DNA of 63,974 nucleotides, the filler included. It is 4 parts of 4 records of this genome, joined end to end, with 100 filler letters (N's around TTAATTAATTAA, not from the genome) between each part and the next. Parts side by side here need not be neighbours in the genome. Positions count along the whole stretch, not along the records: positions 40,185 to 58,927 come from SRR20825010_5175; 3 more parts are not named here. One strand, 5' to 3'. This document shows, in pieces, positions 30,209 to 59,027 of the stretch. The position numbers and the translations under genes are program-made. The stretch's first letter is position 1; every line of letters starts with the position of its first letter. The notes below the pieces were generated by a model. It saw only the letters and a program-made list of their open reading frames with translations, did no database searches and was not told where the DNA came from.

Positions 30209-30308
30209 NNNNNNNNNNNNNNNNNNNNNNNNNNNNNNNNNNNNNNNNNNNNTTAATTAATTAANNNNNNNNNNNNNNNNNNNNNNNNNNNNNNNNNNNN
30301 NNNNNNNN
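30209..30308. other. Artificial contig linker
   Basis: N44-TTAATTAATTAA-N44 (stops in all six frames). Confidence 0.99.
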
Positions 30309-40084: not shown

Positions 40085-40184
40085 NNNNNNNNNNNNNNNN
40101 NNNNNNNNNNNNNNNNNNNNNNNNNNNNTTAATTAATTAANNNNNNNNNNNNNNNNNNNNNNNNNNNNNNNNNNNNNNNNNNNN
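40085..40184. other. Artificial contig linker
   Basis: N44-TTAATTAATTAA-N44. Confidence 0.99.
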
Positions 40185-40187
40185 AAA

Positions 40188-40269
40188 CGGCCCTGACCTG
40201 CCGTTCGCCTCGTGGCCGAGCGCTGCGGTGCAGCTTCACCAGACCGGCCATTCGTCCATCTTGCAGCAT
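40188..40269 (+). repeat. Cassette-boundary repeat, copy A
   Basis: 61/82 identical, ungapped, to 46816-46897 (hand alignment). Confidence 0.8.
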
Positions 40270-40565
40270 ATTCGGCGGGTGGGCGGGTGAAGGTGGGCTG
40301 TACGGGGCATTGTAAGCTTCCGCTGCGCGACGCATGAAGGTCCGTTCCCTTTGGAGCAGTTTGCCCGCAGTATGCATTCGACGGGCCTGCAAAGCGCCTG
40401 CCCCACGAACTGGAGGGCTCACGATGGGTGACTCTGGTCAAAATCAGTTGCCAGTGAGCGATCAGCACAGCAGAGTGCTCACCAGCTACACTCGCTTGGG
40501 AAAGACCGTTAGAGAACTTCTCTGCGCATTGTCGCCTGACGGAGAAACGCTAGAGGTTTGCTTAG

Positions 40566-42395
40566 ATGGCAAGTTTGATTTCCGCCTTGCGCATGTGGAT
40601 CGCCATGGTGGCGATATTGATTATCTGTGTTTCCGCAGGCGCCGCGCAGGGCAATCTCACGGATACTGATTTCAATTTCTCGGTTGTAATGAACAGCAAG
40701 TTCAGCCGAACAAAAAAGGATTCTTACAGGGTCCGAAGTCTCAATGGAGATGTATTCGTGGAGCGCCCGGATAAGGGCTGCACGACAAAAGCAGACGTCG
40801 TCCAAGAAACCGATAGATCCCTGAGCCTTAAGGTAAAGTTCGACAACGGTGCCTGCGGAGACGGTTTTATTACTATTTATCATCGCGAGCGAAACCAGTG
40901 GAGAATGTCATGGGCGGTCCAGAAAGGCGGGACCACTACTTATAGTGCGGAATTTACCTATGACCACGATCCGGAGGCAGTGCGCGTTGCCAATCCGACC
41001 AAGACCTTTTCAGATGGTGTGCTTGGACTCACCCTTGCGGAAGGCCCCCTGCGCCAAGGCATCGGCCCCACCTCTCTGGTTGTCTCAGTTGAAAGTGGCG
41101 GTGTTTCAGACCAAGCAGGAATCCAGGTCGGTGATCTCATCCTGACCGCTCGGATTGCAGGGCCGCCCGATAGTCATATCCGTCATATCAAAGAGTGGCT
41201 AGAGATAGACAGGCCGGTCAACGTTTTGATCGAGCAACCCGATGGTAGCCGCCACAATCGGCGGATCATGCCACCTCCAAAGGAAGTGAACAAGGTGCTC
41301 GTCACCGACGTCAGCGCGATCAACAGGATTTTTTCCGGCGACGGCAAGTCTTTCCTTCGAGACCGGTCTGCGCTCCAGCAGCTCATCGAGCTTGGCGAGG
41401 CACTCGGGATCGATCAGGATGAAATTTCCCAGGCAATAGCCGATGGGCGCCTCAATCCGAGCCTTTCTGATCTCATCCGGGCGTATCTCGAGCTTGACAC
41501 CACGACATGCTCGGATCTCGCTAAGCGCATACGGGCGCGTGAGAAAGTCGGATCGCCGCTGTACAACCGAGCGAATGACTGCGAGTGGATTGCGCTCAAC
41601 GTGGACGAAGTACGTTTTAATGCTTGGAATGCGCGCTTCGGACCGCGCCCGGCTGAGCTCCAAACCCTGCGCATCGACCCCACCGTCGTTGCATACTTCA
41701 ACGCTAACGACGTTCTCGGCAAGCGCTTTCACCAGCTCAGGTGTGACTTCACAACGGCTCTGAGCGAGGTCGCCACTATCCTAGTTGATTGCGTTGGCGT
41801 GCGTCCGACAAATAAACGTAACTTGGTTTACGCACAGGCAAGTGACGCCAGACGCGACGATGTTTTCGGGAGCGCCGACGACCCGACGAGTTACCGCATC
41901 AGATTGATCTCGGATGGCGCATTCGAAACCCTTGAAACTCTGGCCATCGAAGATATGAAATCGCGCCGCCCGCCCGCTGAGCATCTCGTTTCCTATATAG
42001 GTGCTTACCGACCGAACGGTCCGGAACCGCGCTACACGCCCTTGATTGCCAGTTATATCCTGGCGCGGGTGTACCAATATGGTCCCTGCGGCGACCGATT
42101 GGTGCGCCTGACCAAAAGCGTGGAAGACCGGCGGAAGCTGGGCACGCTTTCCGGGTATACCATTAGAGACGATGATTTTTCCTACTCGTTGGATGTCAAT
42201 GTGCCAGCCGCCTTCGCACCAACGGTTGAAAAGATGGCACACCTGCCGATGCCCGGCGAGCCGGGGTGGGGCCGCATCAGGGCAGGACTCGGTGAGGTTC
42301 TGCGTGGGCTTTCCTGTGATAGCGAGGAGCGCCGACGGCTCGAGGCGAACATGCTGGCTTATATCGACAAGAACCCGCCTGAATTTCGTCGCTGA
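40566..42395 (+). CDS. Secreted hypothetical protein with central PDZ-like domain
   Basis: Signal peptide; LGLTL...LVVSVESGG.SDQAGIQVGDLIL; 609-aa open frame. Confidence 0.72.
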   Translation: MASLISALRMWIAMVAILIICVSAGAAQGNLTDTDFNFSVVMNSKFSRTKKDSYRVRSLNGDVFVERPDKGCTTKADVVQETDRSLSLKVKFDNGACGDGFITIYHRERNQWRMSWAVQKGGTTTYSAEFTYDHDPEAVRVANPTKTFSDGVLGLTLAEGPLRQGIGPTSLVVSVESGGVSDQAGIQVGDLILTARIAGPPDSHIRHIKEWLEIDRPVNVLIEQPDGSRHNRRIMPPPKEVNKVLVTDVSAINRIFSGDGKSFLRDRSALQQLIELGEALGIDQDEISQAIADGRLNPSLSDLIRAYLELDTTTCSDLAKRIRAREKVGSPLYNRANDCEWIALNVDEVRFNAWNARFGPRPAELQTLRIDPTVVAYFNANDVLGKRFHQLRCDFTTALSEVATILVDCVGVRPTNKRNLVYAQASDARRDDVFGSADDPTSYRIRLISDGAFETLETLAIEDMKSRRPPAEHLVSYIGAYRPNGPEPRYTPLIASYILARVYQYGPCGDRLVRLTKSVEDRRKLGTLSGYTIRDDDFSYSLDVNVPAAFAPTVEKMAHLPMPGEPGWGRIRAGLGEVLRGLSCDSEERRRLEANMLAYIDKNPPEFRR

Positions 42396-42612
42396 AGGAT
42401 CTATGTCAGAGCAAAAACAAGCGTTCTGTGAAGAAATCCCACCATAACAAGTTGATCCAATTCAGGAATAATCCTCTAGTGGACGTTCGGCCATCCATCC
42501 TATTCCTCTCGTCTATTCGGTTAATGCTTCTTGGAGGTTTTCGCTCTATGCAACTCTTCTTCGCTCCACATCGTGCCGATCATACTCCTTAGCAATAGCT
42601 AGACGACACAAC

Positions 42613-42680
42613 CCGCCCACAGCCGACTTTCGTCGATTGCTCAAGATGCTGCGACTGCATTCCGCTTTGCGGATATTGGC
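42613..42680 (+). repeat. Cassette-boundary repeat, copy B
   Basis: Aligns ungapped with 43002-43069; same two cores 47 nt apart as copies A and D. Confidence 0.7.
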
Positions 42681-42730
42681 TTCCGTTAACATTGCTTCTA
42701 CCATTCACTTGGAATCAAAGAGGTATTCAG

Positions 42731-42996
42731 ATGGAACGCGAACCAAACCTTGTCATTTCCAGCGCCTCGCAACGCATCGTTGAGGATGGGTGCCATTCAA
42801 GGTAGACATCTACAAACTCGAAGGCGGGGACGGTTGGTCACTGGAAGTTGTGACCGAAGACGGGACGTCCATTGTCTGGGACGATCTCTTTGAAGACGAC
42901 CGAGCCGCATTCGAAGAGGCAAAAAGTACCATTCGCAGCGAGGGAGCAGTAGCTTTTGCCATCGGTGGTTCAAACGTCGTCCCCTTCAAACAGTAG
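42731..42996 (+). pseudogene. Small acidic hypothetical protein with apparent 1-nt frameshift near 42790
   Basis: AGAGGT RBS then MEREPNLVISSASQRIVEDG; continues in -1 frame as VPFKVDIYKLE...WSLEVV..DGTSIVWDDLF. Confidence 0.65.
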
Positions 42997-43001
42997 GCGA
43001 A

Positions 43002-43069
43002 CGGCCCATAGCGGGCACTCGGAACTTAATTCAAGTGCCGCAGTTGCAGCCCGCTTTGCCGACTTTCGC
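43002..43069 (+). repeat. Cassette-boundary repeat, copy C
   Basis: Begins 5 nt after stop codon at 42996; aligns with copy B. Confidence 0.7.
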
Positions 43070-43419
43070 TGCCAGTGCTGCGTCTCGACTTGGCACGCTC
43101 CGGTACGACGAGGGAGCGAAAATCGGCGTGCAGCATCCCGGCTTGCGACTTGCGTTCACTGGGTTTGTTCGGCTTTCAGCGCCCGCATTGTTTCTTCTCA
43201 CGCCTGACAAAAAGCAAGGTTTGCTCGTTTGTTCGGAGACGAAGCAGATTTTTGGAAAGCTATTCCGTCGATTTTGAGAAGCCTGCAATTTCGCAATTCA
43301 CGAGAAGGTCGGATCGCCCCTTGCGCTTCGACATCCGTCGGGTCACTAATCACGAGTTCGCACGGCAAGTCTGCGGGATTACTCAGTTTTCCGCCGTAGA
43401 AATTCAACGGTGGCCCCAT

Positions 43420-46400
43420 ATGGCAACATCTCTCTCCAACGTTCTGCGGTACTGGCGGACATCCTTGGCAGATGGTGCTCTTGGCGAAGGGACATTCCGG
43501 GCAGCTGATCGAAAGCGGTTCATGGCGCTCCCGAATGAAGTGCTCAAAACAGGCAGCGTGCCAAAGCCGTTGGTTCAGGCGTTGTTCCGGGGGAAGGATG
43601 GTGTGGGCTCCGTCTCTGTGCGCTTTTGGCCCTTGGTGACAGCCCGTAAAGCGTCCCATGGCGCGTCGCGGGCGGATGGCATGCCAGAGATCGTTGCTCC
43701 AGTCGTCACCGAAGGGTTCGTGGACCTGTCAGGAAGAATCGTGCCGACGCGCAATGCTATTGCGCGTGACCTTTTGGCACCGTTGCCACGAGGCGCCTTT
43801 GCGCTTGGATCGGTGGAAGATCTCGACGCCTTCCTGACGACAACGCCTCTGCCGGAAATGACCACCGCCGACGCCTGGCAGGACTATCGCACTCATTGCC
43901 GCCAAATGCTGGATGCCCTGTCGCCGGGCTGGCCCTCGGACGAGACGGAGTATCTGCCGACGGGGAGCGGGTTTATCGAGGTGTCGGAAGGTGCCGATGC
44001 AACGGTTCGCGGTATGCTGGACCTGTACGACAGCCTGTTGGCCAATGAGCCAGATACGCCGCTTCTGCGTCAGATTGCCTTGCCGCGGCTGGAGAAGGCG
44101 GCAGATCACAGCATTGAAAAGGAATTTTCCCGCCGCCTTGGGCATTCGAACCCGCACTTTCCGCTGGCCGAACATCAACGGCAGGTCCTCGCATGGCTCG
44201 ACGCCGCGCAACCCGGCGAGGTGATCGCGGTGAACGGTCCGCCCGGGACTGGCAAGACGACCTTGTTGCTTTCGGCCGTGGCTGGGATCTGGGTCAAGGC
44301 GGCGCTCAACGGAGGCGACCCGCCGGTGATCGTTGCGGCTTCGTCAAACAATCAGGCGGTCACCAATATCATCGACGCTTTCGGCAAGGATTTCGCGCAA
44401 GGCGAAGGTGTGTTTGCCGGGCGCTGGTTGCCGGACATCAAGAGCTTCGGGATGTTTCTTCCGTCGCATTCCCGCCGCATGGAGGCTGCGCAGCGCTATC
44501 AGACCGAGGCTTTTCAGGCGGAATGTGAGTCGGTCGCCTATGTCGAACGAGCGCGGATGGCCTGGCTGGACGCCGCAGGAAAGGCGTTCCCAGGTTCCGA
44601 GGGCACGGATGTTGCCGGGTTTGTTGCTAAACTTCGGGATCGGATGACCGAAGAGGCCAATACGCTCCGTAACCTTGATGCGGCGCTGAACCGCCGCAAC
44701 GCGTGTGCTGCCGCCCTCTTGTCGGAACTCGGCGAAGAAGCGGAGGTCGAGCACACACGGCGCGCCGATGCGCTTCGGGTCAGCCAGGACGGGGCAGATC
44801 GACTGGCCGCTGCACGCGCAGCATTGGATCACTATTTGGCCTCAGAGGCTTGGCTCACTGGGGTTTTCGGTTTCCTTCCTTCGGTCAAGCGGCAACGTGC
44901 CCTGAAGGCGCGCTTGGCCATTGGGGATCGGCTGGACGGACTGCGGGATTTCGCCCGCGTCGAAGATATCGAGGCGCGGATTTCGGAAGAGGTCAGACGG
45001 GGGCAGAAAAGCTTGACCGTGGCCAAGGATCTCCTGGCGCGCGCTGAAAACCTCAGCCAGCAGGCCAAAGACAGCGAATTGGCTTGGCATCAAGCGGCTG
45101 AGGCTTTCGGTGGATCGGATAACCTGGCCGACCTTGAGGTGCGAGCGGATCTCGGCACACGGTTCAACCTGTTCCTGCTTGCGATCCACTATTGGGAAGG
45201 ACGATGGTTGAAGGCAATGGAGGCCGACCTCGCCGACATCACCGCCTCGCATGAAAAAACCGGCCGGAAGGCGGTCGAGCCTCGCTGGAAGCGCCGGATG
45301 ATGCTGACGCCTTGCGCCGTTGCCACCTTTGCCAGCCTGCCTGGGAAACTGTCCTGTAGCCGCTATCAGAGCGGAAAATTCGCGAGCGAAAGCCTCTACA
45401 ACTTCATCGACTTGCTCATCGTCGACGAAGCCGGGCAGGTGCTGCCTGAGGTTGCCGGCGCCTCCTTCGCCTTGGCCAAACGCGCGTTGGTGATCGGAGA
45501 CACCCAGCAGATCGAACCGATCTCGTCCCTTCCGCGCCCCGTCGATATCGGCAATCTCAAGGACAGTGGGCTGATCGATGGTGAAGAGGTGCCCGAGCAA
45601 ATCACGGTCAGCGGTATCCAGTCAACGAGCGGCAGCGCTATGCGCCTTGCGCAACAGGCCTGTCAGGTTTCCCCGTGGCCCGAGCTGGACCGCGGGCTGT
45701 ATTTGTTCGAGCATCGCCGCTGCCATGATGAAATCATCGGGTTCAGCAATGCGCTGTGCTACAAGGGCAAGCTGCGTCCGATGCGTGGTCCCGCGCCAGC
45801 GGACGCGCCCATGCCTGCGCTTGGATACCTGCATGTCGAGGGACGGGCATTCACCAGCGGCGGCAGCCGCGCCAACCCTGTCGAGGCCCGTACCGTCGCC
45901 GCATGGTTGGCGGATAACCGCACCCTGCTGGAAGGCCGATATGGTCGTCCGCTGGAGCAGGTCGTCGGTGTCGTTACACCATTTGGCCAGCAAGTGCGCG
46001 CCATCAGGGACGCGTGCGCGGCGCGCGGTATCACAGTGTCGGGGCGTGACGGCATGACCATTGGCACCGTGCATGCGCTGCAGGGCGCCGAACGGCCCAT
46101 TGTGATTTTCTCACCAGTCTATTCCAAGCACGCTGATGGCGGCTTTATCGACGCTTCGCCCAGTATGCTGAACGTGACTGTCTCGCGGGCCAAGGACAGT
46201 TGCCTCGTTTTCGGCGACATGGATGTCCTCGCCACGGCCCGCAGCGGGTCTCCGCGTGCCTTGTTGTCCGAATTCCTGTCGACCAACGGAGCCGCGTTGG
46301 ATTTCGCCATGGAACCGCGTGAGGACTTGACCCGTCGCGATGCCCAGATTGAGCTGCTTCAGCACGCCGCCGAGCATGACGCGTTCCTGATTGAGGCACT

Positions 46401-46812
46401 CAAGGGGGAGGGGCGGAAATACATGATCGTCAGCCCCTGGGTCGTCGCTGGAACGATTAAGCGGACAGGTCTCTTTGATGCCATGGCGACCGCTCGCCAA
46501 CGAGGGGCAGAGATCGACGTCTTTGCCGATCCGTTGCTGAACACCGGCCAGGCCGCGGGGGGCCTGAGCCAGATGGAAGCCGTTGAGCGCAGGTTCTCGG
46601 AGATCGGCGTCGCGGTACATCGGGTCCCGAAGCTTCACAGTAAGATTGTGACTGTCGACAAAGACCTTCTTTGCGCTGGCTCTTTCAATTGGCTTAGCGC
46701 AGATCGAAAGGGCCAATACGCTAGGCACGAAACATCTTTTGTCTATCGTGGTGGGCACCTCGAGGACGAAATCAAAATCATCCGCGATGGCCTCGCGAAA
46801 CGCGCAAAGTAG
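43420..46812 (+). CDS. Superfamily 1 (Upf1/DNA2-like) helicase fused to C-terminal PLD nuclease; Mokosh type II-like architecture
   Basis: NGPPGTGKT, SSNNQAV, VDEAGQ, IGDTQQIEP, EHRRC, VVTPF..Q, GTVHALQGAE, NVTVSRAK; HSKIVTVD....GSFNW. Confidence 0.88.
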   Translation: MATSLSNVLRYWRTSLADGALGEGTFRAADRKRFMALPNEVLKTGSVPKPLVQALFRGKDGVGSVSVRFWPLVTARKASHGASRADGMPEIVAPVVTEGFVDLSGRIVPTRNAIARDLLAPLPRGAFALGSVEDLDAFLTTTPLPEMTTADAWQDYRTHCRQMLDALSPGWPSDETEYLPTGSGFIEVSEGADATVRGMLDLYDSLLANEPDTPLLRQIALPRLEKAADHSIEKEFSRRLGHSNPHFPLAEHQRQVLAWLDAAQPGEVIAVNGPPGTGKTTLLLSAVAGIWVKAALNGGDPPVIVAASSNNQAVTNIIDAFGKDFAQGEGVFAGRWLPDIKSFGMFLPSHSRRMEAAQRYQTEAFQAECESVAYVERARMAWLDAAGKAFPGSEGTDVAGFVAKLRDRMTEEANTLRNLDAALNRRNACAAALLSELGEEAEVEHTRRADALRVSQDGADRLAAARAALDHYLASEAWLTGVFGFLPSVKRQRALKARLAIGDRLDGLRDFARVEDIEARISEEVRRGQKSLTVAKDLLARAENLSQQAKDSELAWHQAAEAFGGSDNLADLEVRADLGTRFNLFLLAIHYWEGRWLKAMEADLADITASHEKTGRKAVEPRWKRRMMLTPCAVATFASLPGKLSCSRYQSGKFASESLYNFIDLLIVDEAGQVLPEVAGASFALAKRALVIGDTQQIEPISSLPRPVDIGNLKDSGLIDGEEVPEQITVSGIQSTSGSAMRLAQQACQVSPWPELDRGLYLFEHRRCHDEIIGFSNALCYKGKLRPMRGPAPADAPMPALGYLHVEGRAFTSGGSRANPVEARTVAAWLADNRTLLEGRYGRPLEQVVGVVTPFGQQVRAIRDACAARGITVSGRDGMTIGTVHALQGAERPIVIFSPVYSKHADGGFIDASPSMLNVTVSRAKDSCLVFGDMDVLATARSGSPRALLSEFLSTNGAALDFAMEPREDLTRRDAQIELLQHAAEHDAFLIEALKGEGRKYMIVSPWVVAGTIKRTGLFDAMATARQRGAEIDVFADPLLNTGQAAGGLSQMEAVERRFSEIGVAVHRVPKLHSKIVTVDKDLLCAGSFNWLSADRKGQYARHETSFVYRGGHLEDEIKIIRDGLAKRAK

Positions 46813-46815
46813 TTC

Positions 46816-46897
46816 CGGCCCTTTCCTGCCGTTGGCCATGTTGCCTGCCGCTGCAGCGCAGCTTTCGCATTGCTGCCATTCGTCCATGACGCAGCAT
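46816..46897 (+). repeat. Cassette-boundary repeat, copy D (related motifs extend to ~46970)
   Basis: Begins 3 nt after helicase stop; 74% identical to copy A. Confidence 0.8.
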
Positions 46898-47106
46898 TCT
46901 TCATCGTTGGATGACTGCAAAGCCGGACCTTTCCGACCTTCGCCATCTCCGAACCAACGGTCGGATTCGGCGCGTCGCATTGGTAGCGGATCGTAAATAG
47001 TTAGTGCAGAAGATGCCGAAAATGCATTGATCTAACGCAAGAAACGCTCACGCAGAGAATAGTAAAGTAGACGAATTCCGATTCGTTCAAACCCGGGGCG
47101 ATTCCA

Positions 47107-47940
47107 ATGCCGATCTCTATCAAAATTCCTACTCAAAAACTGCCGTTCACTGCGCTCTTTTTCTTCTTAGGGACCACCTTTTTGATCACTTGGGGCGTCA
47201 TCGGCGGCTACATCTTCTCGCCCGACGCTATGATCAAGGCTTTCGGCGCAATCAGCGGATCGCATCCGCTTTTCTTCCTCGCGACGTGGGCCCCTGCCAT
47301 CGCGGCATTCACCGTGGTAATGTTGTATGGTGGCTCGGCCGGGCTAAAAGGATTCCTGTCGCGGCTCTTCCTTTGGCGCTGCCCCGCTTCGTGGTGGCTA
47401 TTCATCCTGATCTTGATACCCTTGGTTTTTATGGCAGGCTCGCTCATCAAAGGTGGGCAGCTCCTCGCACCGCTTCCACCTGAAGGCATGGTCCCAGTCT
47501 TCGGCCTGATGTTCAGGATGCTATTGCTGGGGCCTATTGAAGAATTCGGCTGGCGTGGCCTCGCACAGCCACTTCTCCAGCGGTACATGGCACCGATCTG
47601 GGCCGGTGCCTTGATTGGCACGGTCTGGGGCATCTGGCACCTGCCCGCTTTCTTTCTTTCCGGCGTTGTCTTCGCAGAATGGAGCTTCCTGCCCTTCTTC
47701 ATCGGGAATATCACTCTAGCGATCCTTGTGACCCCAATCTTCAACGCATCGCACGGCAGCCTAGCACTACCTGTGCTGTTCCACTGGCAACTGATCAACC
47801 CTTTCTGGCCCGATGCACAGCCCTGGGATACCTGGCTTCTTGTTTTCGTCGCCGCAGTCGTTGTCTGGTGGAAGCGCTACACAATGTTCTCGCGCGAGGG
47901 TGCGGTTACAGAAGTGATCCCCCAAGAGGCCCAGCTATGA
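47107..47940 (+). CDS. CPBP (CAAX protease/Abi) intramembrane glutamic endopeptidase
   Basis: EEFGWRG, WGIWHLP, LFH motifs; multiple TM segments. Confidence 0.92.
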   Translation: MPISIKIPTQKLPFTALFFFLGTTFLITWGVIGGYIFSPDAMIKAFGAISGSHPLFFLATWAPAIAAFTVVMLYGGSAGLKGFLSRLFLWRCPASWWLFILILIPLVFMAGSLIKGGQLLAPLPPEGMVPVFGLMFRMLLLGPIEEFGWRGLAQPLLQRYMAPIWAGALIGTVWGIWHLPAFFLSGVVFAEWSFLPFFIGNITLAILVTPIFNASHGSLALPVLFHWQLINPFWPDAQPWDTWLLVFVAAVVVWWKRYTMFSREGAVTEVIPQEAQL

Positions 47941-48122
47941 AACAGTATCTGGTCGGCGCTGTGCTTACAGCATTTACGACATTCACGGGTCCGGCACGAG
48001 CCGAGACGATGGAGCGTCAGATGTAGGCTCTGTTGGATGGTTTTCACACGGACTACAACTTTCCAGATGCGACGGCGTTGGAAGTAACTCTTGCAGGTTT
48101 GGCGATAGGCGCAGTGCAATGA
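47937..48122 (+). pseudogene. N-terminal remnant of a secreted protein, possibly serine hydrolase/beta-lactamase family
   Basis: ATGA overlap, signal peptide MKQYLVGAVL...ARA, premature TAG at 48024, then ALLDGFHTDYNFPDATA. Confidence 0.45.
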
Positions 48123-48159
48123 CACCCGCCCACGAAGGGTAATCGCACGACTTTGGGGT

Positions 48160-48996
48160 TCAATGCGGAAAGTTGATGTCGGAAACATCGACAACGAAAA
48201 ATGGGAAATACTCATCGGTGTCAAAGAAGTTTCCGGCCTCAATATGTGTTGGAAGCATGAAACCTTCGAACTCCCGAAACTCAGAGAGAAAGCCGCCAAA
48301 GGGCTGCAACTGATGGGTCTTTTGGGGGTTGGCGTCGCTCCAACGCATGAACATCACATGGAGCGGCTGGCCGTCCTCGCCCACAGTGATATCAACCGCC
48401 TGTTCAAGATCGCCGTGGCGCATCGTCATACGCGCAACGTTTTCAGAAACAGGCTCCCAAGTGACGTTGGGGCTTGGCAGAACGGCTGCAGGCGTCCAGA
48501 AAACAGCTTCGGCCACATATCGCCCGAAAGCAGAGCGGGTGTGGTCCGGGGTGCCACCGAACCGCGCCACTGGGGCAAGACCGGCAAGCCAGAACCGGGT
48601 CCACGATCTGCTATCGGAGCCTGCCATGCGCATCGCGCCCTCGCCGCCAGACATCGCCCAAACGAACCCATGAGGAGCAGCGAGCAGTTGCGTCGCGCGC
48701 ATGGGCATGTAACTCGGCTTTGTCTTGTCACCCATGCTAAACTGCCCCTCCATCTCCAACCGGGCCACTGTATAAAGCGGTGTGTCCTCAGCGATGGCGA
48801 ATGCGAAAAAGCGACGTGCAGGGGCGGGCAGATCTGCGACCATCTTTGGCGCGAACCTACCCGGATTGGTAGGCTGGAATCCGATCAGGCGATCCATTTC
48901 CGCGCGGTCGGCACGATGATCCAACTGCCGCCACGCCAAAAGACCGGTCAAACCGAATCCGACGACCACCAGTATCGCGATAACGATCATACGCAT
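48160..48996 (-). CDS. DUF6544/DUF6920-like membrane-anchored protein
   Basis: N-terminal TM; LPAPARRFF.FAI, GFVW, RY.AE..W.PAA.LP, V.WE, G..LPT..E. Confidence 0.72.
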   Translation of the reverse strand: MRMIVIAILVVVGFGLTGLLAWRQLDHRADRAEMDRLIGFQPTNPGRFAPKMVADLPAPARRFFAFAIAEDTPLYTVARLEMEGQFSMGDKTKPSYMPMRATQLLAAPHGFVWAMSGGEGAMRMAGSDSRSWTRFWLAGLAPVARFGGTPDHTRSAFGRYVAEAVFWTPAAVLPSPNVTWEPVSENVARMTMRHGDLEQAVDITVGEDGQPLHVMFMRWSDANPQKTHQLQPFGGFLSEFREFEGFMLPTHIEAGNFFDTDEYFPFFVVDVSDINFPH

Positions 48997-49137
48997 TTTC
49001 CGTCCAATCTCAGCTTCACTCCTCAGGCACGTCACCCCTTATCGGTTTGGTGCCGTCTCAAGCCGATCAAGAGGTGCAAGCTGCATAGCAATCGACCGAA
49101 TCCGATGTTAGAATATATGATTTGGCAGGCGTTTTTG

Positions 49138-49151
49138 TTGACCCAAATCAA
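49138..49151. promoter_or_regulatory. FNR-type box in divergent intergenic region
   Basis: TTGAC-CCAA-ATCAA, one mismatch to consensus. Confidence 0.65.
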
Positions 49152-49186
49152 ATCCGTATTGATATCCACTATGAGATGATTTGCGA

Positions 49187-49978
49187 ATGGATATCTTCGA
49201 TCGGCAAAATCAGGTCGGGCGCTTTCTTGCTCTGGCCTTCGGGATTTCGTGGACATCTTGGCTATTGGCAGCGATCATGCCAAGCCTTGAGGCTCCTCTA
49301 AAGATTGCAGGCACTTTCGGGCCAAGCTCGGCTGCCCTAATTCTAGTATGGCCACATCTGCAAGAACGTCGCGAGTTGCTAAGCCGCCTCGTTCGTTGGC
49401 GCATACCGATCAACGTCTTGTTATACGCCAGCGCACTGCCCGTAGCGGGCATCCTCCTCGCGCTTCTAACGGTGCGTGCGATAACGGGAAATGGGGCGGT
49501 ATGGCCTGAACCGATGCTGATCTGGCTCCCGGTGGTCGTCTTCGCCTACATTATGGTGTTTAGCGTCGTGGGCGAGGAACTAGGGTGGCGTGGCCTAGCG
49601 CTTCCGCCGCTCATTGCTCGGCATGGTCCCATTAAGGCTAGCCTCGGCCTTGGGCTGGTATGGGCGATATGGCATGCACCGCTCTTTCTGCTGCCTGGAG
49701 ATTTTCATAATGCCATCCCGCCATTTCTGTTTGCCATACAAATCGTCGCGTCCAGTGTCATCTATACGCACCTGCATCTCGCCAGCGGCGGATCGCTCGT
49801 CCCGGCACATCTGTTTCATGCCTCGTTCAATGCCTCTGCCGGGCTGTTTCCAGTATTGCCGCAGACCCGTAGCGGCGATCTTACCGCGCTTTGGTTCGCC
49901 GTGGGCACACTCTGCGTAATTGCGGTGGCGACGGTTTTCGTCATTCGAAGGCGCGTGCGATTAAGCGCCAGTCAGTAA
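49187..49978 (+). CDS. CPBP (CAAX protease/Abi) intramembrane glutamic endopeptidase
   Basis: GEELGWRG.ALP, WAIWHAPLF, FHASFN. Confidence 0.92.
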   Translation: MDIFDRQNQVGRFLALAFGISWTSWLLAAIMPSLEAPLKIAGTFGPSSAALILVWPHLQERRELLSRLVRWRIPINVLLYASALPVAGILLALLTVRAITGNGAVWPEPMLIWLPVVVFAYIMVFSVVGEELGWRGLALPPLIARHGPIKASLGLGLVWAIWHAPLFLLPGDFHNAIPPFLFAIQIVASSVIYTHLHLASGGSLVPAHLFHASFNASAGLFPVLPQTRSGDLTALWFAVGTLCVIAVATVFVIRRRVRLSASQ

Positions 49979-50122
49979 TCGTGAAGGCGCATTTTTGCGA
50001 ATACACTCCGCACCACTTACTTTTGACACGGCAACTCAGAGGGCTAACGTCGAGGCGAGTTATCGCAGGAAGATAACTGTAAGACCCTTCTAGCGGCTGC
50101 ATTTAATGAAACTCTGAGACCG

Positions 50123-50180
50123 TAGCAGACGTTGGTGCAATCCGCAGCATCGGTAAAATGGGCTCTCACCCGACCTTCTC
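50123..50180 (+). repeat. Partial cassette-boundary repeat (copy F) upstream of the recombinase
   Basis: TAGCAGACGTTGG-N7-CGCAGCAT...CCGACCTTC matches the second half of copy D. Confidence 0.55.
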
Positions 50181-50264
50181 CGGAAGCGCACATTTCCATG
50201 CTAAGCTGAGTTGCCAACGTCTGGTTGGCGCTGTGGTGGATCGTGGCGGATGGGAGGAACCATC

Positions 50265-50715
50265 ATGACCATAGCAAACTTACCAGCCATTCGCGCTTGT
50301 CGCCCTGCCTGGAACAAGGGGCGAGTCATAGGGCAGAAGCGCCCTTTGATGCCAAAACACGTGTGGGCTATCCGTGTGCGTCTCGAAATAGCTGAGAACC
50401 ATCGTGATCTGGCGCTATTCAACCTCGCAATCGACAGCAAGCTTCGCGGTTGCGACTTGGTGAAGTTGAAGGTCGCGGACATCTACGCCTCAGGTCAGGT
50501 AAAGGAACGGGCCTCAATCATCCAAAGTAAAACCAAGCGACCGGTGAGGTTCGAAATCACCGAGGGCACACGCAAATCAATCTTGAGATGGATGGAGGAG
50601 CCTTTGATGGTCGGTTCCGAACACCTATGGCCGGGGCGTTTTCATGAACGTCTGCACATTTCGACCCGTCAATACGCTCGCTTGGTTCGCGAATGGGTCA
50701 AATCCATCGGATTTT
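50265..50715 (+). pseudogene. Tyrosine recombinase/integrase, C-terminally truncated
   Basis: GGAGG RBS; WNKG..IGQKRPL, RDLALFNLAIDSKLRGCDLV, QSKT.RPV.FEI, STRQYAR.V..W; lacks the HxxR...Y catalytic C-terminus. Confidence 0.88.
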
Positions 50716-50763
50716 GCTGCGGCGCAGCTTCAGCGAAACGGCCATTCATACGATGCGCGGCAT
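50716..50763 (+). repeat. Cassette-boundary repeat, copy E (5'-truncated)
   Basis: 35/48 identical, ungapped, to the second half of copy A. Confidence 0.75.
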
Positions 50764-50840
50764 TTTGGAGCGGCCAATTGCTGCGGTTTGGACCTTTTCG
50801 GGATTGGCAATGGTTGTTCAGTCGCCGCCGCGGCAGTGAA

Positions 50841-52180
50841 GAGAGGTGGTCCTGCTTTTTTGGCCAGTTTGCAGCCCTGCTAAGATGGATCAGGGTTTCA
50901 CATCAGGCTGCCATTCTCATTGGTTCGGTTTTGCTGGCATGGACCTCGTCAGGGGTCAAGATGCCGTGGGTCGAGTGCGGCCGCTCAGCGCTGTAGTACG
51001 CCAGCCATTTTCGGATACCGGCCTTCGCCTCTGTGCCCGTTTCAAAGGCGTGCAGATAAACGCATTCGTACTTCAGAGTCCGCAACAGGCGCTCGATCAT
51101 CCTGTTGTCGATCCAGTGTCCTTTGCCGTCCATGCTGATCTTGATCTTTGCGTCGCTCAGGACCTTGATCCAGTCTGCGCTGGTGAACTGGCTGCCCTGG
51201 TCGGTATAGAAGATTTCCGGCTTGAGGTGTTTGGCTAACGCTTCCTTAAAGGCATCCACAAAAGGTCCGCCTCCAGCGTGTTTGACAGCGACCACGCCAA
51301 CACCTTGCGGCTGTACCCGTCCATGATCGCCACCAAATACAGGAAGCCTCGGCGCATCGGAATGTAGGCAATGTCGGCACACCAGACTTGGTTTGGCCGG
51401 TCGATCACCATTCCCCTCAGCAGATACGGCCAGATCTTGTCCTGAGGGTGTTTCTTACTGGTGTTGGGTTCGTGGTAGATCGGCACCAGCCGCATGAGGC
51501 GCATCAACCGCCGCACCCGATGCCGCCCGTACTTGTGACCTTGGCACTGCATATACCGGGCCATTCACTGACCGACAGGGTATTTCCGCAGCAAATGTCC
51601 CGAAAGGTTTCCGGGATCCGTACCACGGCGTTTCCAGGAACTGTCGATCAAAAATTGCCATGAACTGCAAGTTCTCGGTGCTCTCGCCCTTCGGCTGATA
51701 ATACAGGTTAGACCGCGTCAACGTCAGCAACGCACACAGATGTCGAACGCTCAGATTGTGATCCGTGCTCACCATTTTTTGCCTCGCGTCCCGAGCAGTT
51801 GAACCGAGGCATCCATTGCCCGGCAATGCATGCTAGCATGCATGAGAGGGGGCCAAAAATTCCGCTCGACAACAAGCTGCCCGATCTTAGAGTGCACTTT
51901 CTCGATTTCGACCGTATTGGCAGGAGCCGGATCGGCCCCTCGCCGTTTAAACGCAGACACCATGTTTTGAATCGCCGCTCGTTTTCACGTGCTGATCTGG
52001 GTCGCGTGTACGCCGTATTTCTTCGAGAGCTCCGCCAGCATCATCTCGTCGTGGATCGCCTCAAGCGCAACCTTGGCCTCGAACTCGGGCGAATAGTTCT
52101 TTCTCTTCGTCATCTTGGATCGTGTCTCTCGTCAGGCGATCCATCTTAACAACTGGTCCGAAATCCTGCGACCACCTCTA
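50841..52180 (-). mobile_element. Degenerate IS3-family insertion sequence
   Basis: Terminal inverted repeats AGAGGTGGTC...CCAGTT; orfA from 52113 with in-frame TGA; orfB (W.ADI.YI, TDQGSQFTS, DN..IER..RTLKYE) split over three frames. Confidence 0.92.
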
Positions 52181-52660
52181 AGGGCTCGGCGGGACGGCGG
52201 TGACTTGCCGTTCGCTTTGGACAGCGGAAAAACCGAAAAATGAACATTTCTGGATCGGACGACTTGAGGTGGAAATCTGCATAATCTCCTGACGAATAGC
52301 GCATTCGACAATAGGAATGATCGCGTCGTCTGGCTCTTCGCTGCGGGGTGCAAATGCGTCTATTACATACGCCTGCGCTCTGACCTGAAACACCACCGCA
52401 TCGCGGGATGCCCAAGTGTCGTTCAACACACTAGCGACTTCCAAACGGACAAGATGGCCGTCACGCTTACGCAAATGGTCTGCGGCCATCACCCCGCCCA
52501 TGTATCACTCGTTCATCGTCGTCGCCACGAGGCACATGGGCTTGTTGCCCGGGCTCAAATAAATTGGGTGCACGTCGGTAGGCACAATTTCTGCTTGATT
52601 GCCCACCGTCAGCTTCCTTGTAGGGGCCATCAGATCGTTGGCGCACACGTCTTCGCAAGG

Positions 52661-54262: not shown

Positions 54263-54454
54263 AGAGATGCCTCTTGGGTCGATTAAGTCGCCAGTGAAAT
54301 GTCCTTACCCGCGGGTGGCATTGGCCCCCATCTGCCTATTTTCCACAAATTATGGTAACTTAATCGTAATTTATGAGTCGTTTCGACGCAAGCTTGTTGT
54401 CAGATCTTTCGCGACGGCACTTAGCTAACGCAAATGCTTTGTTAGGAGAAAGCT

Positions 54455-55681
54455 ATGACGTCCTATGGTGGTGCAGGCGGCGGAGCGGGAGGCGGTGCTG
54501 GCGGAGGGGCCGGAGGTGGCGCAGGTGGAGGAGCCGGGGGCGGTGCCGGAGGAACGGGGTCCGATGTTGGACTCTATGGGGCCGAAACGTTTCTCAAAAG
54601 TCACGCCGGCAGCCCGCCCTCACCGCTGCTCAGCAGCGCGCTGATCCTGTCGCAAGATGCGACCGTGTCGTATTGGGACGGAGAGTCCACGCTGACACCC
54701 ACGGAGCATTCCGAAAGCCTAACGGCTTATCTCAAAGAGGTTCGGATGCCGACGCAGGCCCTGATCCTCGACTGCCATGTCCGCAACCTGATTGGTGTCG
54801 AATGGAGCATCGCGGAGACGATTTCCGACGATGGTAACGGCGACGACGAAGAAGCGGCTGCAGAGGACGATGTCGACGGCAAATGCGAATTCATTGTATC
54901 TCCCGTCATAAAAATGACCGTCAGAAAACCGAAAGATTCGGTATCCGGACAAGCGGACATCCTGACCGTCGCGACGGTCACCAAGCCGGATCCCGATTAC
55001 TTCGAGAAAGACCTGCATTGGCTGCGGAACTATAGCGACCTGCGCAGCGACAGACTTGCCGAGATCTACCACCAGACCGGGGACATCATTTCCTTCTTCG
55101 GGGCCTTGGGCTTTCTGGACAATGGTCGCCGGAAGTATACGCTTTTGTTGCTGGAAGCCGTGCGGTCAGTGGCGGTTCATGTGGAAACGCTCGCCAAGTT
55201 TATCGGGCGCCAAAAACGCCCCATCGATTACGCCATGGAGGTACAGCCGATGATCCAGACGCCGGATCATTCGTCCTTCCCCTCCGGTCACGCGCTGGAG
55301 GCCTTTGCCATTGCGACAGTGCTACATCGTCTGTCCGACACGGGCAGTGCAGTCGACGGCATCCGTGACAACGCGCGACCCTTTCTCCTCGCGCATCGGA
55401 TTTCCACGAACCGCACGGTGGCCGGGGTGCATTTCCCGGTGGATTCGCTTGCCGGAGCGTTCCTTGGCCTGCATTTGGGCGAGCTGATCCACTCAATAGC
55501 GACGGGGACGAGCATCCAACTCGGGGAACTGGGCAAGCCGACTACGCCGGTCGACGAGGAGAAGACGGAAGACTTCCTGCTGTCGAGTTTCTTAACCCAT
55601 CTGGGAAACCCGGTCGACGGCGGCACCCAATCTGACGAACTGGTGGCTTGGTTCTGGGACAAGGCCCGACAGGAATGGTGA
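54455..55681 (+). CDS. PAP2/vanadium-haloperoxidase superfamily protein with N-terminal (GGGA)n tract
   Basis: K......RP, HSSFPSGHA, NRTVAGVHFPVD motifs; AGGAG RBS. Confidence 0.87.
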   Translation: MTSYGGAGGGAGGGAGGGAGGGAGGGAGGGAGGTGSDVGLYGAETFLKSHAGSPPSPLLSSALILSQDATVSYWDGESTLTPTEHSESLTAYLKEVRMPTQALILDCHVRNLIGVEWSIAETISDDGNGDDEEAAAEDDVDGKCEFIVSPVIKMTVRKPKDSVSGQADILTVATVTKPDPDYFEKDLHWLRNYSDLRSDRLAEIYHQTGDIISFFGALGFLDNGRRKYTLLLLEAVRSVAVHVETLAKFIGRQKRPIDYAMEVQPMIQTPDHSSFPSGHALEAFAIATVLHRLSDTGSAVDGIRDNARPFLLAHRISTNRTVAGVHFPVDSLAGAFLGLHLGELIHSIATGTSIQLGELGKPTTPVDEEKTEDFLLSSFLTHLGNPVDGGTQSDELVAWFWDKARQEW

Positions 55682-55732
55682 TCGCCAACACTTCGTTTGG
55701 GGATGGCCGGGTCGAAAGCAAAGGATGCAAGC

Positions 55733-57829
55733 ATGTCTGAATTCAAGAAGGATAATGGTTGGAATGCCACGCGGGAGACGCCCTATGTCAACTGGTGGGG
55801 TATCGTGGACGGACAGCTTCCGGCGAATTTCAGGGATTTCGACGATGCGGGCGAGGGAATCTTCTTCGACCCCGGCAGGCTGGTCGACCGGATCGAGAGG
55901 CTGCGCTCGCCGGATCGCGAAACCTTCAGGTTCTCAAAAGAAATGAAACAGATACTTGAGAAATTCGGCCGAGGTTCTCTGGTGCCACTGCCCAAGGACA
56001 GCAAGAATCCCCACTGGCCCAAAGATCCTGACAAACTTCCCGACTGGATCACACGAGAGGTGATGGACCGCCTGCCGGACGACGTGCCAAACGATGCCGT
56101 CATCGTCGGCGTGATCGATACCGGAGTGGCACTCGGGCATCGGGCCTTTCGTCTGGGCAATGGCGAAACCCGCGTCATATCCGCGTGGCAGCAGACCGCT
56201 GAATTCCATCACCAGTCGGCGGACTACCTGCCGTTCGGCGACGAATGGTTCGCCGGCGATATCAATGGAAAGCTGCGTGACCACTCCCTCAATCGCAACC
56301 TTAACGACAGGCTGGACGAAGACGCATTCAATCGCGCCTTGCGGCTGGTCGAACCGCAACGCATCCGGGGACACCGCGATCTGGATCATCGCGCCGCCCA
56401 TGGCACCCACATCATGGACATTGCCGCCGGAGGCGATCCAGCCAGCTTTGCGGATGCCGAAAGGCTACGCATGATCGTGGTCAACCTGCCCACACAGTAT
56501 CTGCACGGCTATGCTGGAAATTTTCTTGAATTTTTCGCAAGTTACGCCGTCGTGCGCGTATTTCACCTCGCCGAGGCGCTTTGGAGAAAGAACAATCCCG
56601 AACGTTCGGGCGGCTACCCGGTGGCGCTGAACTTCGCCTATGGAATGATGGGGGGGCCCAAGGACGGATCGCGGATGCTTGAGAAGCTGATGGACCTCTT
56701 TGTGACCAAGCGGAAGGAATCTGGTCTGCCGACCAGCATCTGCATGCCCGCCGGGAATGAGAACCTTGCAAAGTCGGTTGCGCGCGTCCAAACCCGGCCA
56801 GACCGTTGGTCCGATCCGATCCCCTGGCGCATCCTGCCCTCTGACCGAACGTCGAACCATCTGGAGTTCTGGTCCACCGTAACGACAAACTCTCTAAAGG
56901 ACGATTTTGACCAATACGCGTTCAAGATCACGACACCTACGGGCGACCATTCCGAAATCTCCGCGCCCCGGCATGGTGCCTATGCCGACCTGCCCGGGGG
57001 ATTTGCGCGGCTCTACTGCCTTCTTCATCCAACTGAAGATGATGCCACCCATGTCCATTTCATGCTTGCGATATCACCGACGCTGATCATCGAACGCGAT
57101 GCAGAGCGCGGCGCACAGGTCGTGGCGGCACCTGCGGGCATCTGGACGATCGAGGTCCGCTCGCCGCGCCCGTCAGAGCTGACCGTGTATGTCCAGTCCG
57201 ATCAATCGGCAAAGGTCCAGAGCAATGCCGGATTGCGATCCTACCTGGATCACTCATGCTACAAGCCTTACCTTCCCAATGGACGCATTCGCGATACATA
57301 TTCCTACCAACTTGGGTCTTCCGAAATGCCAGTGGATCAGGAAGAGCCTGACGCCTTTGTGACCCGGAAAGGCTCGCACAACGCTCTGGCGACGACCACG
57401 TCGATTAGCGCGCTTGCAGGTTTTCGGCGCAGCGATGGAAGGCCTGCGGCGTATTCGGCCACATCGTTTCCGCCGCGCTGTCCGTGTGTCCACGAAATAC
57501 AGGCGGCTTATCCGACGGATGACAGCCCGGCGCTGTACGGGGTACTGGCCGCCGGCGCGCGAGACGGTTCTTCGGTTGCCTTTCGCGGAACCAGCATGGC
57601 GGCCGCCATGGCGACAAGGGCAGCCGCAAACGCAATGCTGGATTGGACGCAGGCGGGAAATTGCGCTCACTTGGGAAACAGCGACTGGCACGACCGGGAA
57701 GGGGCTGCCGGGGAACTCGACATTGCAAGAACACATCCATATTTCGGCATGACGATGGCCGACAAGACCGGCAGAGGCCGGGTCCTTTCACAGGAACATC
57801 ATCGCCTCTGGCGCAAGGCGCCGCGCTGA
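55733..57829 (+). CDS. Subtilase (peptidase S8)-like protease without signal peptide
   Basis: Catalytic motifs VGVIDTG, HGTHI, PAGN, RGTSMAA. Confidence 0.85.
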   Translation: MSEFKKDNGWNATRETPYVNWWGIVDGQLPANFRDFDDAGEGIFFDPGRLVDRIERLRSPDRETFRFSKEMKQILEKFGRGSLVPLPKDSKNPHWPKDPDKLPDWITREVMDRLPDDVPNDAVIVGVIDTGVALGHRAFRLGNGETRVISAWQQTAEFHHQSADYLPFGDEWFAGDINGKLRDHSLNRNLNDRLDEDAFNRALRLVEPQRIRGHRDLDHRAAHGTHIMDIAAGGDPASFADAERLRMIVVNLPTQYLHGYAGNFLEFFASYAVVRVFHLAEALWRKNNPERSGGYPVALNFAYGMMGGPKDGSRMLEKLMDLFVTKRKESGLPTSICMPAGNENLAKSVARVQTRPDRWSDPIPWRILPSDRTSNHLEFWSTVTTNSLKDDFDQYAFKITTPTGDHSEISAPRHGAYADLPGGFARLYCLLHPTEDDATHVHFMLAISPTLIIERDAERGAQVVAAPAGIWTIEVRSPRPSELTVYVQSDQSAKVQSNAGLRSYLDHSCYKPYLPNGRIRDTYSYQLGSSEMPVDQEEPDAFVTRKGSHNALATTTSISALAGFRRSDGRPAAYSATSFPPRCPCVHEIQAAYPTDDSPALYGVLAAGARDGSSVAFRGTSMAAAMATRAAANAMLDWTQAGNCAHLGNSDWHDREGAAGELDIARTHPYFGMTMADKTGRGRVLSQEHHRLWRKAPR

Positions 57830-57905
57830 ACGCAATCCGGCCTCATAAGGCCCATGTCGAAGGGGGCCGTGCGGCCCCCTTCCGTGATCATGCCATTTCG
57901 AACGG

Positions 57906-58175
57906 TCACTGACTCGACTTGGTTACGGTGTCGAGCGTGCCCAAGCGACGCGCCTCTGTCTGTATTTTCCGCCAGAAATCTGCTTTCTGGCGATCAATCA
58001 GTTCGATGCGAACCGCGGCGTCGTCCCCAGCATGCTGGATTTGAACGAGTTCGCCCAGCGTATAGACACCCGGCTCGACCTTAAGCTCTTTCTCCATGAA
58101 CTCGATGGTCGGGTTTGCGCTTGCCGGAATGGCCATCCAGGTTACTAATGTGAAAATTGCAGCAGTCTTTAACAT
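57906..58175 (-). CDS. Small secreted hypothetical protein
   Basis: GGAGGA RBS, signal peptide MLKTAAIFTLVTWMAIPASA, then L.VEPGVYTL.EL. Confidence 0.7.
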   Translation of the reverse strand: MLKTAAIFTLVTWMAIPASANPTIEFMEKELKVEPGVYTLGELVQIQHAGDDAAVRIELIDRQKADFWRKIQTEARRLGTLDTVTKSSQ

Positions 58176-58927
58176 CTTGCATCCTCCAAAATTATCGATG
58201 TCCCGGAACAGCCCGGGATGAATCCAAACTACTGCCATGTCGCAATCGAACCGTGATGCACGAGCAATTTTATTGTAACTTCTGGGTCTTGGAGGAACTA
58301 TTGGTAAACATTGGCAGGTGCCCAACACTGGAGTGGAGACCGCACCCCTTGGCCCGCTCGCACCCAGACAACATTGGTGTCGAATGCCCGAACCGCCGAA
58401 CGTGGTTGTGAACTGACAAATGTGCCGCAATGGACAGCCAAGCAACACCCGCTTTTTGCGACGGTCAGCTTTCAGAACGTTCGAGCGCGGGCCTGACTGT
58501 TCAGTTTGCAGGGCTTGGGTCGCGCAGCTGTCTCGAACTGCGCAGTGCTAAAGTGATTGTCATGTTGCGGGACAGCGACATCCGCTGAATCATCTCCGAC
58601 CGGGGAAGCATGATGTAAAAACGACGCCAACGAGTATCTCGGCTACGCGCCCTCCATTGGGATGAACTCTGCCCAACTGCTTGTCAGCTTCCAACTATTT
58701 CGTTCGATTACTTCGCATCCACAGCGAGCGACCGTTTTCCGAACGGATTTTCGATGCGGGCCGTAGCGCACTTGTGGCGATCCTGCGGTGGCGGTCACAG
58801 ATTGAGCTCTTTGTTGCCGTTCGCTGCCGTTTAAAGTGTCACGTGCTGCCGGACGTCCGCTTTCTCATACGGTGAATCTAAACTTCGCGCCCGCAGTGAA
58901 TGACTGCCTCCCGCCGATGCTGTTGAA

Positions 58928-59027
58928 NNNNNNNNNNNNNNNNNNNNNNNNNNNNNNNNNNNNNNNNNNNNTTAATTAATTAANNNNNNNNNNNNNNNNN
59001 NNNNNNNNNNNNNNNNNNNNNNNNNNN
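58928..59027. other. Artificial contig linker
   Basis: N44-TTAATTAATTAA-N44. Confidence 0.99.

Follow-up and report, generated by a model that had tools for sequence, protein, structure and literature searches.

The locus examined here raises the question of whether a short repeat that recurs between unrelated genes is an incidental feature of the DNA or the site at which those genes are exchanged. The window, that is, the whole stretch of DNA analysed (63,974 bases), consists of four contigs joined by N-linkers, and the finding occupies all of the third contig (40185-58927). A sequence-only reading of this contig had proposed a distinct, recombinase-driven, integron-like system that moves accessory and defence genes. 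This proposal is supported by the linkage of the repeat to a recombinase gene, by module boundaries that fall at the repeat, and by the presence of the cargo gene mkoC between copies of the repeat in three other genera. We consider it likely that the repeats are double-stranded recombination sites of ~81 bp, probably acted on by a tyrosine recombinase of 210 amino acids, and that they bound exchangeable modules.

The repeat forms a recognizable sequence family. A profile was seeded in nhmmer with copies from the window, from the closest genome (G001) and from two plasmids, and was iterated over all fetched DNA until it converged on 81 positions; a covariance model (CM) of 75 copies was run unfiltered. 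Six copies (A-F) were recovered, all on the + strand of the third contig. Site A (40188..40268) is a full 81-nt copy that opens with CGGCCC 3 nt from the contig start (nhmmer E 4e-16, CM E 5.4e-23), and site D (46816..46896) is likewise full length (nhmmer E 1.8e-13, CM E 2.5e-19). Site B (42615..42680) is divergent (nhmmer E 5e-4 over model positions 3-68, CM E 1.8e-4), site C (43002..43080) scores nhmmer E 4.1e-7 and CM E 2.4e-6, and site E (50708..50767) retains the 3' two-thirds of the unit (nhmmer E 1.5e-8 over model positions 27-81, CM E 4.6e-12). Site F (50120..50151) comprises only the 3' part, with the second core and GCAGC (CM E 0.002, model positions 55-86). Copies A-E of the sequence-only reading were thus returned by both models and F in part by the CM, and the similarities it had reported were reproduced (74% identity over 82 nt, or 61/82, for A and D; 73% over 51 nt for E and A). 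Its isolated cores at 52201-52215, 58805-58830 and 58897-58907 were not found by the CM at E<=5, the only trace being a 22-nt match to the start of site A at 52194-52215. The resemblance of that stretch to an IS3/IS407-type end (TGAC.TGCC at the start of A and at 52194) was considered and rejected, as its orientation does not match that of the IS3 remnant nearby and the profile places the stretch inside the site. In the other three contigs, no CM match was better than E 0.011; a weak match at 27093-27146 of the first contig (E 0.011, model positions 4-58) may be due to chance.

The unit of ~81 nt has a consistent anatomy. Positions 1-6 read CGGCCC in nearly all copies, and two direct C.G.C.TT cores occupy model positions 11-18 and 58-65, which bears out the 47-nt spacing noticed from the sequence alone. 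Between them lies a GC.GC / GC.GC palindrome (positions 35-47), and a third GCAGC follows at 76-80. The motif CGGCCC-N4-C.G.C.TT occurs twice where 0.10 occurrences are expected, and TGCCGTTCGC occurs four times where 0.32 are expected; these counts are so far above expectation that chance is excluded. Mean column identity across 75 sites is 63%, which makes homologous recombination between copies a poor alternative.

Could such a repeat act as RNA or be translated? An expression signal (a terminator, 5' leader or small RNA) with no part in recombination would suit copies that are intergenic, often sit just past a stop codon and lie 100-340 nt before the next start codon. We nevertheless consider it very improbable. 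RNAalifold found no consensus structure and no pairs in 75 copies (a consensus fold of 6 copies gave 12 invariant pairs, that of 75 none), the variable positions of the central palindrome change independently with no covariation, and folds of single copies are mostly no better than those of shuffled sequences, site C being the exception (z -2.9). No match to the repeat was found in Rfam at E<=1, the downstream gene is as often on the opposite strand, and regulation would leave the module boundaries at the hexamer unexplained. The sequence-only reading had named a match to a known non-coding RNA family or to the end of a miniature inverted-repeat transposable element (MITE) or insertion sequence (IS) as evidence against its proposal; the search returned neither an Rfam match nor inverted termini. 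A small open reading frame (ORF) or gene fragment was also rejected: short peptides can be read on both strands, but column conservation has no codon periodicity. With no fold, no Rfam match and no codon periodicity, the repeat is read as a putative double-stranded protein-binding site and not as an attC-like fold, an RNA or a coding fragment.

The protein that might bind it is encoded within the array. At 50265..50714 (+) the window carries a truncated tyrosine recombinase gene corresponding to residues 1-150 of 210 and lacking the H-x-x-R, H and Y catalytic residues; it is 90% identical to residues 1-150 of an intact 210-residue protein on the Paracoccus sediminicola plasmid p2, where one site follows the last gene of a type IV secretion system (T4SS) and another follows the recombinase gene. 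The intact protein consists of a catalytic domain only. Xer-type models match its residues 43-200 (the catalytic half), the XerA chain 5hxy_A was matched, and 30 intact homologues keep the catalytic R, K, H-x-x-R, H and Y with little or no variation, which places it in the tyrosine recombinase superfamily. It falls far below all curated cut-offs, including those for integron integrases (TIGR02249, 18.7 bits versus 265) and for FimB/FimE (NF007371, 20.6 versus 222). G001 carries the same truncation. Since its recombinase is truncated, the window array is probably inactive in cis, and it is probably frozen unless an intact copy acts in trans.

Relatives of this recombinase were collected with one genome per species; at least 523 exist in public genomes, and the best 80 loci (82-100% identity, many genera) were kept. 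The repeat is linked to the recombinase gene. At least one site is present in 66 of the 80 loci, and 136 of 151 sites lie on the strand of the recombinase gene. Of the 77 loci whose downstream sequence is long enough, 49 have a site that begins 26-56 nt past the final recombinase codon, and in 47 the distance is 26-29 nt. Upstream, an SGGCYC hexamer stands at about -105 in 60 of 78 loci; it reads GGGCTC in 54 of those 60, and a core follows in 44 of the 60. Homology between loci spans only ~-105 to +31 around the gene, from the GGGCTC variant to positions 6-7 of the downstream site, and no other gene is conserved beside the sites across these loci. Because this homology is bounded by sites, the recombinase gene itself can be regarded as a module of ~770 bp flanked by sites. 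In the window, the variant left site (GGGCTC-N4-C.GACCTTC, 50160..50181, +) lies 105 nt before the start codon, where inter-module homology begins; site F ends ~10 nt before this module, a layout also seen upstream of the recombinase in other loci, and site E is joined to the broken recombinase gene through a deletion. As many as 9 sites were counted in a 20-kb stretch; sites occur on chromosomes and plasmids alike, and a genome may hold several recombinase copies. On the conjugative plasmids of loci L016, L098 and L099, the array begins directly after the last virB-type T4SS gene, whose stop codon abuts or overlaps CGGCCC; the end of the T4SS operon looks like a conserved point of entry for arrays.

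If the sites delimit mobile units, homology between otherwise different loci should end at them, and a good part of it does. Among 345 internal ends at which homology between loci stops, 102 are located within or next to a site; 78 of these 102 map to model positions 2-21, including 42 at positions 6-7. Duplicated modules define the boundary to the nucleotide. A 1.7-kb module (a site and a DUF6880 gene) is present twice in locus L029 at 99% identity, as is a 1.0-kb module (a site and an M24 peptidase gene) in L062 at 98%, and in both cases identity opens exactly at CGGCCC and closes at the next CGGCCC. Three Phaeobacter plasmids of two replicon types (P. inhibens pP92_a, a T4SS plasmid, and two plasmids of another type) have segments of 1.8 kb and 8.4 kb in common at >99% identity. 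Each segment begins with the CGGCCC adjoining the final T4SS gene's stop codon and ends either at the hexamer that follows the recombinase gene or at one farther on, beyond which the cargo differs; two further junctions on Phaeobacter plasmids fall on degenerate hexamers. Homology that ends at CGGCCC places the exchange point at or inside the hexamer and makes the site the head of the module that follows. The view of the sequence-only reading that cargo is shuffled between sites is supported (L029, L062 and Phaeobacter), but the exchange is located at the hexamer on the 5' edge and not at the cores, and its view of the site as the 3' end of the preceding gene does not hold, the site belonging to the 5' end of the following module. 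A role for the cores is suggested by one comparison, in which positions 12-67 of site A are 100% identical to G001 C1:4023208-4023263 and the flanks differ on both sides; because this shared 56-nt stretch runs from core 1 to core 2, the cores may also be exchange points. The junctions compared have no regular target duplication. Just ahead of the hexamer, two of them have a short sequence duplicated in tandem (TAACG twice at L029 ~14441-14450; TCCCGCA twice at L101 ~18426-18439), which may be footprints of staggered exchange.

These boundaries also bear on the idea of a selfish or structural intergenic repeat of the repetitive extragenic palindrome or MITE type, spreading by itself and merely supplying patches of similarity for general recombination. 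Abundance speaks for it. In an even sample of the order Rhodobacterales (145 genomes of one family and 6 of another; sites at E<=1e-4, recombinase at E<=1e-30), sites are present in 127 of the 145 genomes (~88%), often in many copies, and in 0 of the 6, and some copies are partial or head to head. Such a repeat is nonetheless a decidedly unlikely explanation: the consensus has no terminal inverted repeats, the junctions show no regular target duplication, and copies only ~63% alike would have to yield breakpoints on a single 6-nt motif. Moreover, copies cluster by the recombinase, at ~1 site per 8 kb in the 80 recombinase loci versus 30 in the 5.3 Mb of G001, a figure obtained with a different tool and cut-off.

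Taken as recombination sites, the repeats suggest the following mechanism. Islands on plasmids and chromosomes would be divided by sites of the same orientation into modules measuring ~0.4 to 8 kb, each of which extends from its own site up to the next CGGCCC. Two direct sites would recombine at or within the hexamer and release the module as a circle with one site, which could then insert into any other site, whatever the replicon; this recombinase is the predicted catalyst, and the circle and the exact points of cleavage are likewise predictions. The recombinase gene would itself move as a module, with the GGGCTC variant bounding it to the left and a CGGCCC site to the right. Applied to the window, this scheme would give the order PDZ-like protein, small acidic protein, mkoC and a CPBP/DUF6544 block, followed by a recombinase module cut at codon 150 by a deletion.

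Several observations weigh against this reading. The recombinase of the window is a truncated pseudogene, and the link between sites and recombinase is loose at the level of the genome: the recombinase was found in 73 of the 145 genomes (and in 0 of the 6), with both present in 69, sites only in 58, recombinase only in 4 and neither in 14. The sequence to the left of CGGCCC is not conserved and a second recombinase-binding arm is not evident, which would be unusual for an enzyme of this superfamily. At one junction in Phaeobacter (L100 23690 / L101 30862), the breakpoint is 17 nt past a CGGCCC and not on the hexamer. Downstream genes have no preferred orientation (59 co-oriented versus 76 opposed, by a crude ORF call), so that the modules are not classical promoterless cassettes. 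A homologue of 64% identity on the Agrobacterium pusense plasmid pAtCFBP5496 (L114) has no Rhodobacterales-type site adjacent to it. The sole strain difference available for the window is associated with an IS and not with a site: G001 matches 46958-58927 at 99% identity and lacks 40185-46957, departing from the window 62 nt past site D, and carries an IS256-like transposase remnant in place of the missing segment. Contigs from four sequencing runs show the window array unchanged with no joint at any site, although contigs drop rare variants and are thus silent on excision, and no excised circle or empty site was seen in the sequence data.

The loose genome-level link is best considered together with the possibility that the sites are genuine and that another enzyme acts on them (host XerC/XerD, as at pdif sites, or a further protein), the small recombinase being a frequent passenger. 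The 58 of 127 site-bearing genomes with no recombinase match at the above cut-off are in keeping with this possibility, as is G001, which has 30 clustered sites (in one case 7 on the same strand in 7 kb) and only a truncated copy of the recombinase. We regard it as unlikely, since it would have to accommodate the fixed 26-29 nt between recombinase gene and site in 47 of 77 loci, the variant site at about -105, the confinement of homology to -105 to +31 and the lack of any other conserved gene beside the sites. The sites are also direct and do not alternate like pdif sites, a comparison that rests on orientation and did not include a dif sequence model. Decay of the recombinase appears to be common: many copies are fragments or contain stop codons, and three of the four recombinase-only genomes hold nothing but broken or partial copies; the fourth, G112, has in addition one that is near full length and free of stops.

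How does the proposed system of 210-residue recombinase and ~81-bp sites relate to those already known? Integrons are the textbook route for collecting and reshuffling single genes by site-specific recombination, and their definition rests on a single clade of integrases and a single type of folded site. Their hallmarks are IntI, with its IntI-specific extra segment, and attC sites, which are imperfect inverted repeats that form a single-strand hairpin and have GTTRRRY-type ends; a cassette is a gene followed by a site with the crossover at the site's 3' end, and intI lies outside the cassettes beside attI. The present arrays resemble integrons and CALINs (attC clusters without an integrase) in that a tyrosine recombinase adjoins an array of same-oriented sites separating unrelated accessory genes, a given module is seen at several places in an array and on more than one replicon, arrays are often retained where no recombinase is functional, and defence genes are among the cargo. 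Unlike IntI, the recombinase has 210 residues, is reduced to the catalytic domain and fails TIGR02249, and its gene, unlike intI, is bounded by sites, moves as a unit of ~770 bp and is co-oriented with the array. Unlike attC, the site carries its two cores as direct repeats and shows no conserved fold. The boundary lies at the 5' edge of the site, which heads a module instead of trailing a gene, and modules can contain several genes in either orientation. None of the testable features that define integrons was found, and the recombinase is accordingly not IntI and the site not attC, as had been anticipated. An ordinary integron or CALIN is thus extremely improbable: the shared gene-plus-site logic and the arrays with no working recombinase are outweighed by the TIGR02249 score, by direct cores in a site with no hairpin and by the lack of an Rfam match.

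Other systems share individual features. The pdif sites of Acinetobacter plasmids are 28-bp dyads of alternating orientation served by host XerC/XerD, and pdif modules likewise are discrete units of one or several genes in either orientation, bounded by short sites and exchanged among plasmids; the present sites differ in length (~81 nt), in being mostly direct (136/151) and in having a dedicated recombinase gene, the distinction being drawn on orientation and recombinase and not on a comparison with dif sequences. The FimB/FimE invertases (NF007371) are also proteins of ~200 residues with no N-terminal core-binding domain, but the present recombinase scores far below their cut-off, and invertases flip one segment between inverted sites, whereas the sites described here are direct and numerous. 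Plasmid multimer resolution, exemplified by Cre/loxP and ResD/rfsF, pairs a tyrosine recombinase with a single neighbouring site. The immediate adjacency of site and recombinase gene, often on conjugative plasmids next to a T4SS operon, recalls this arrangement; one site per replicon, as in resolution systems, contrasts with up to 9 sites in 20 kb, with chromosomal locations and with several recombinase copies per genome. Unlike a MITE or IS end, the site has no inverted termini and no regular target-site duplication.

Relatives of the recombinase extend well beyond the Rhodobacterales. At E<=1e-40 they occur in 376 plasmid records, mostly at <60% identity, including Pantoea (33), Sinorhizobium (26), Escherichia (25), Vibrio (18) and Klebsiella (15). 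The Agrobacterium homologue in L114 (4255-9290) stands behind a virB operon between two Lrp-AzlC-AzlD blocks and may represent a sister system with another site. We give an even chance to the broader proposal of a second gene-cassette platform independent of integrons, in which a self-mobile, catalytic-domain-only recombinase would exchange modules at CGGCCC and shuttle those with metabolic, regulatory and anti-phage functions between chromosomes and conjugative plasmids, and in which relatives on Rhizobiaceae and enterobacterial plasmids may run sister systems. If this is true, gene cassettes as a strategy would have evolved on more than one occasion, here with a minimal recombinase and a site whose architecture is unrelated to that of integrons; much of the mosaicism seen in roseobacter plasmids and islands, the variable region that follows T4SS operons included, would be explained; and a simple sequence marker would be at hand for mobile accessory and defence genes in abundant marine bacteria. 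The combination of a 210-residue recombinase and an 81-bp site is also of potential interest as a compact genetic tool. No description of this site system was found in the open full-text literature; most subscription journals and all supplements lie outside that scope, and a prior description is possible. In the parts of it consulted, a 2026 survey of Sulfitobacter mobile elements contains no mention of 'integron', 'cassette' or 'recombination site' (PMC13386836), and a motif in the accessible part of another paper is unrelated to the site (PMC5737381).

The modules of the window carry unrelated cargo. Module 1 encodes a 609-residue protein (40566..42395, +) with a weak PDZ-like stretch (PDZ_6, E 5e-4, 20.2 bits versus a cut-off of 27). 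Module 2 contains a 68-residue acidic ORF (42790..42996, +) taken from the ORF list, the single ORF bracketed by sites B and C, with a stop codon 5 nt before site C; neither product has a match in PADLOC. The gene in module 3 (43420..46812, +; stop codon 3 nt before site D, both stop-codon distances being as first reported) encodes a superfamily 1 (SF1) helicase fused to a PLD nuclease (Pfam AAA_11, AAA_12 and PLDc_2). This protein of 1130 residues matches MkoC over its full length in PADLOC (1210 bits, profile positions 3-1135 of 1136), and the gene is, judged by its sequence, the Mokosh type II defence gene mkoC. The cargo of module 4 (47107..49978) comprises a CPBP protease-like gene (+), a DUF6544/DUF6920 gene (-) and another CPBP protease-like gene (+), with Pfam matches to Rce1-like (twice) and DUF6544. 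The initial cargo assignments accordingly stand in Pfam for the helicase-PLD protein, both CPBP proteins, DUF6544, PAP2 and S8, and lapse for SARP, which has no Pfam match, and for PDZ, which is below the Pfam cut-off.

Of these cargo genes, mkoC was followed into other genomes. Relatives were sampled over 401 genera and found in 15, with 12 loci returned for context. The 3 closest of the 12 (81-83% amino acid identity, in three other genera) are bracketed by sites in otherwise unrelated surroundings, and their stop codon precedes the hexamer by 4-5 nt; sites are lacking at the other 9, which are more distant (<=67% identity). Cargo in other loci is varied and includes GNAT, VWA, methyltransferase, LysR, Crp, NYN and hydrolase genes. 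At the DNA level, a search for the window cargo in other plasmids returned site A itself as the sole match, in 7 records.

To the right of the array, a frameshifted remnant of an IS3-family transposase (50903..52150, -; Pfam rve, rve_3 and HTH_21 on two overlapping ORFs) directly follows the broken recombinase gene; it lies outside the site system and disrupts it. No detectable sites bracket the block beyond it (52661-58927; a 533-residue protein, PAP2 and S8), and membership of this right third of the contig in the array is not supported by sites. The contig does begin in a copy of the repeat, as had been claimed, but the related motif described at its end is an IS edge, since the end matches a G001 position 6 nt after the start of a multicopy IS of 1317 bp. 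Two inverted, identical copies of this IS in G001 (C1:4011886-4013202 and C1:4026466-4027782) flank 13 kb beside the region shared with the window; that segment holds two sites on the opposite strand, and an IS-mediated inversion is possible.

G001 also offers examples of arrays with no recombinase, at L115 (C1:2679000-2693000) and L013 (C1:1750000-1764000), where large helicase fusions (RNase_H_2 with an SF1 helicase, 1141 residues; DEAD with UvrD, 1817 residues) occur alongside metabolic genes. Two of the sites in L013 are head to head, at 6774-6845(-) and 6887-6967(+).

Among sequencing data, 40185-50184 is present in 19 runs from 10 studies. In run X10, the match of one contig to the window is confined to the part from 46816, the start of site D, onward, and one low-depth contig of run X14 skips 165 nt (51205-51371) within the IS3-family remnant. 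The N-linkers of the window, with their TTAATTAATTA spacer, lie at 30209-30308, 40085-40184 and 58928-59027, and adjacency across them has no meaning. In the fourth contig, an ORF of 639 residues (60020-61939) contains two direct repeats at 60047-60768 (182 and 137 nt, 384-nt spacing, 74% identity), which points to an internally repeated protein as its predicted product.

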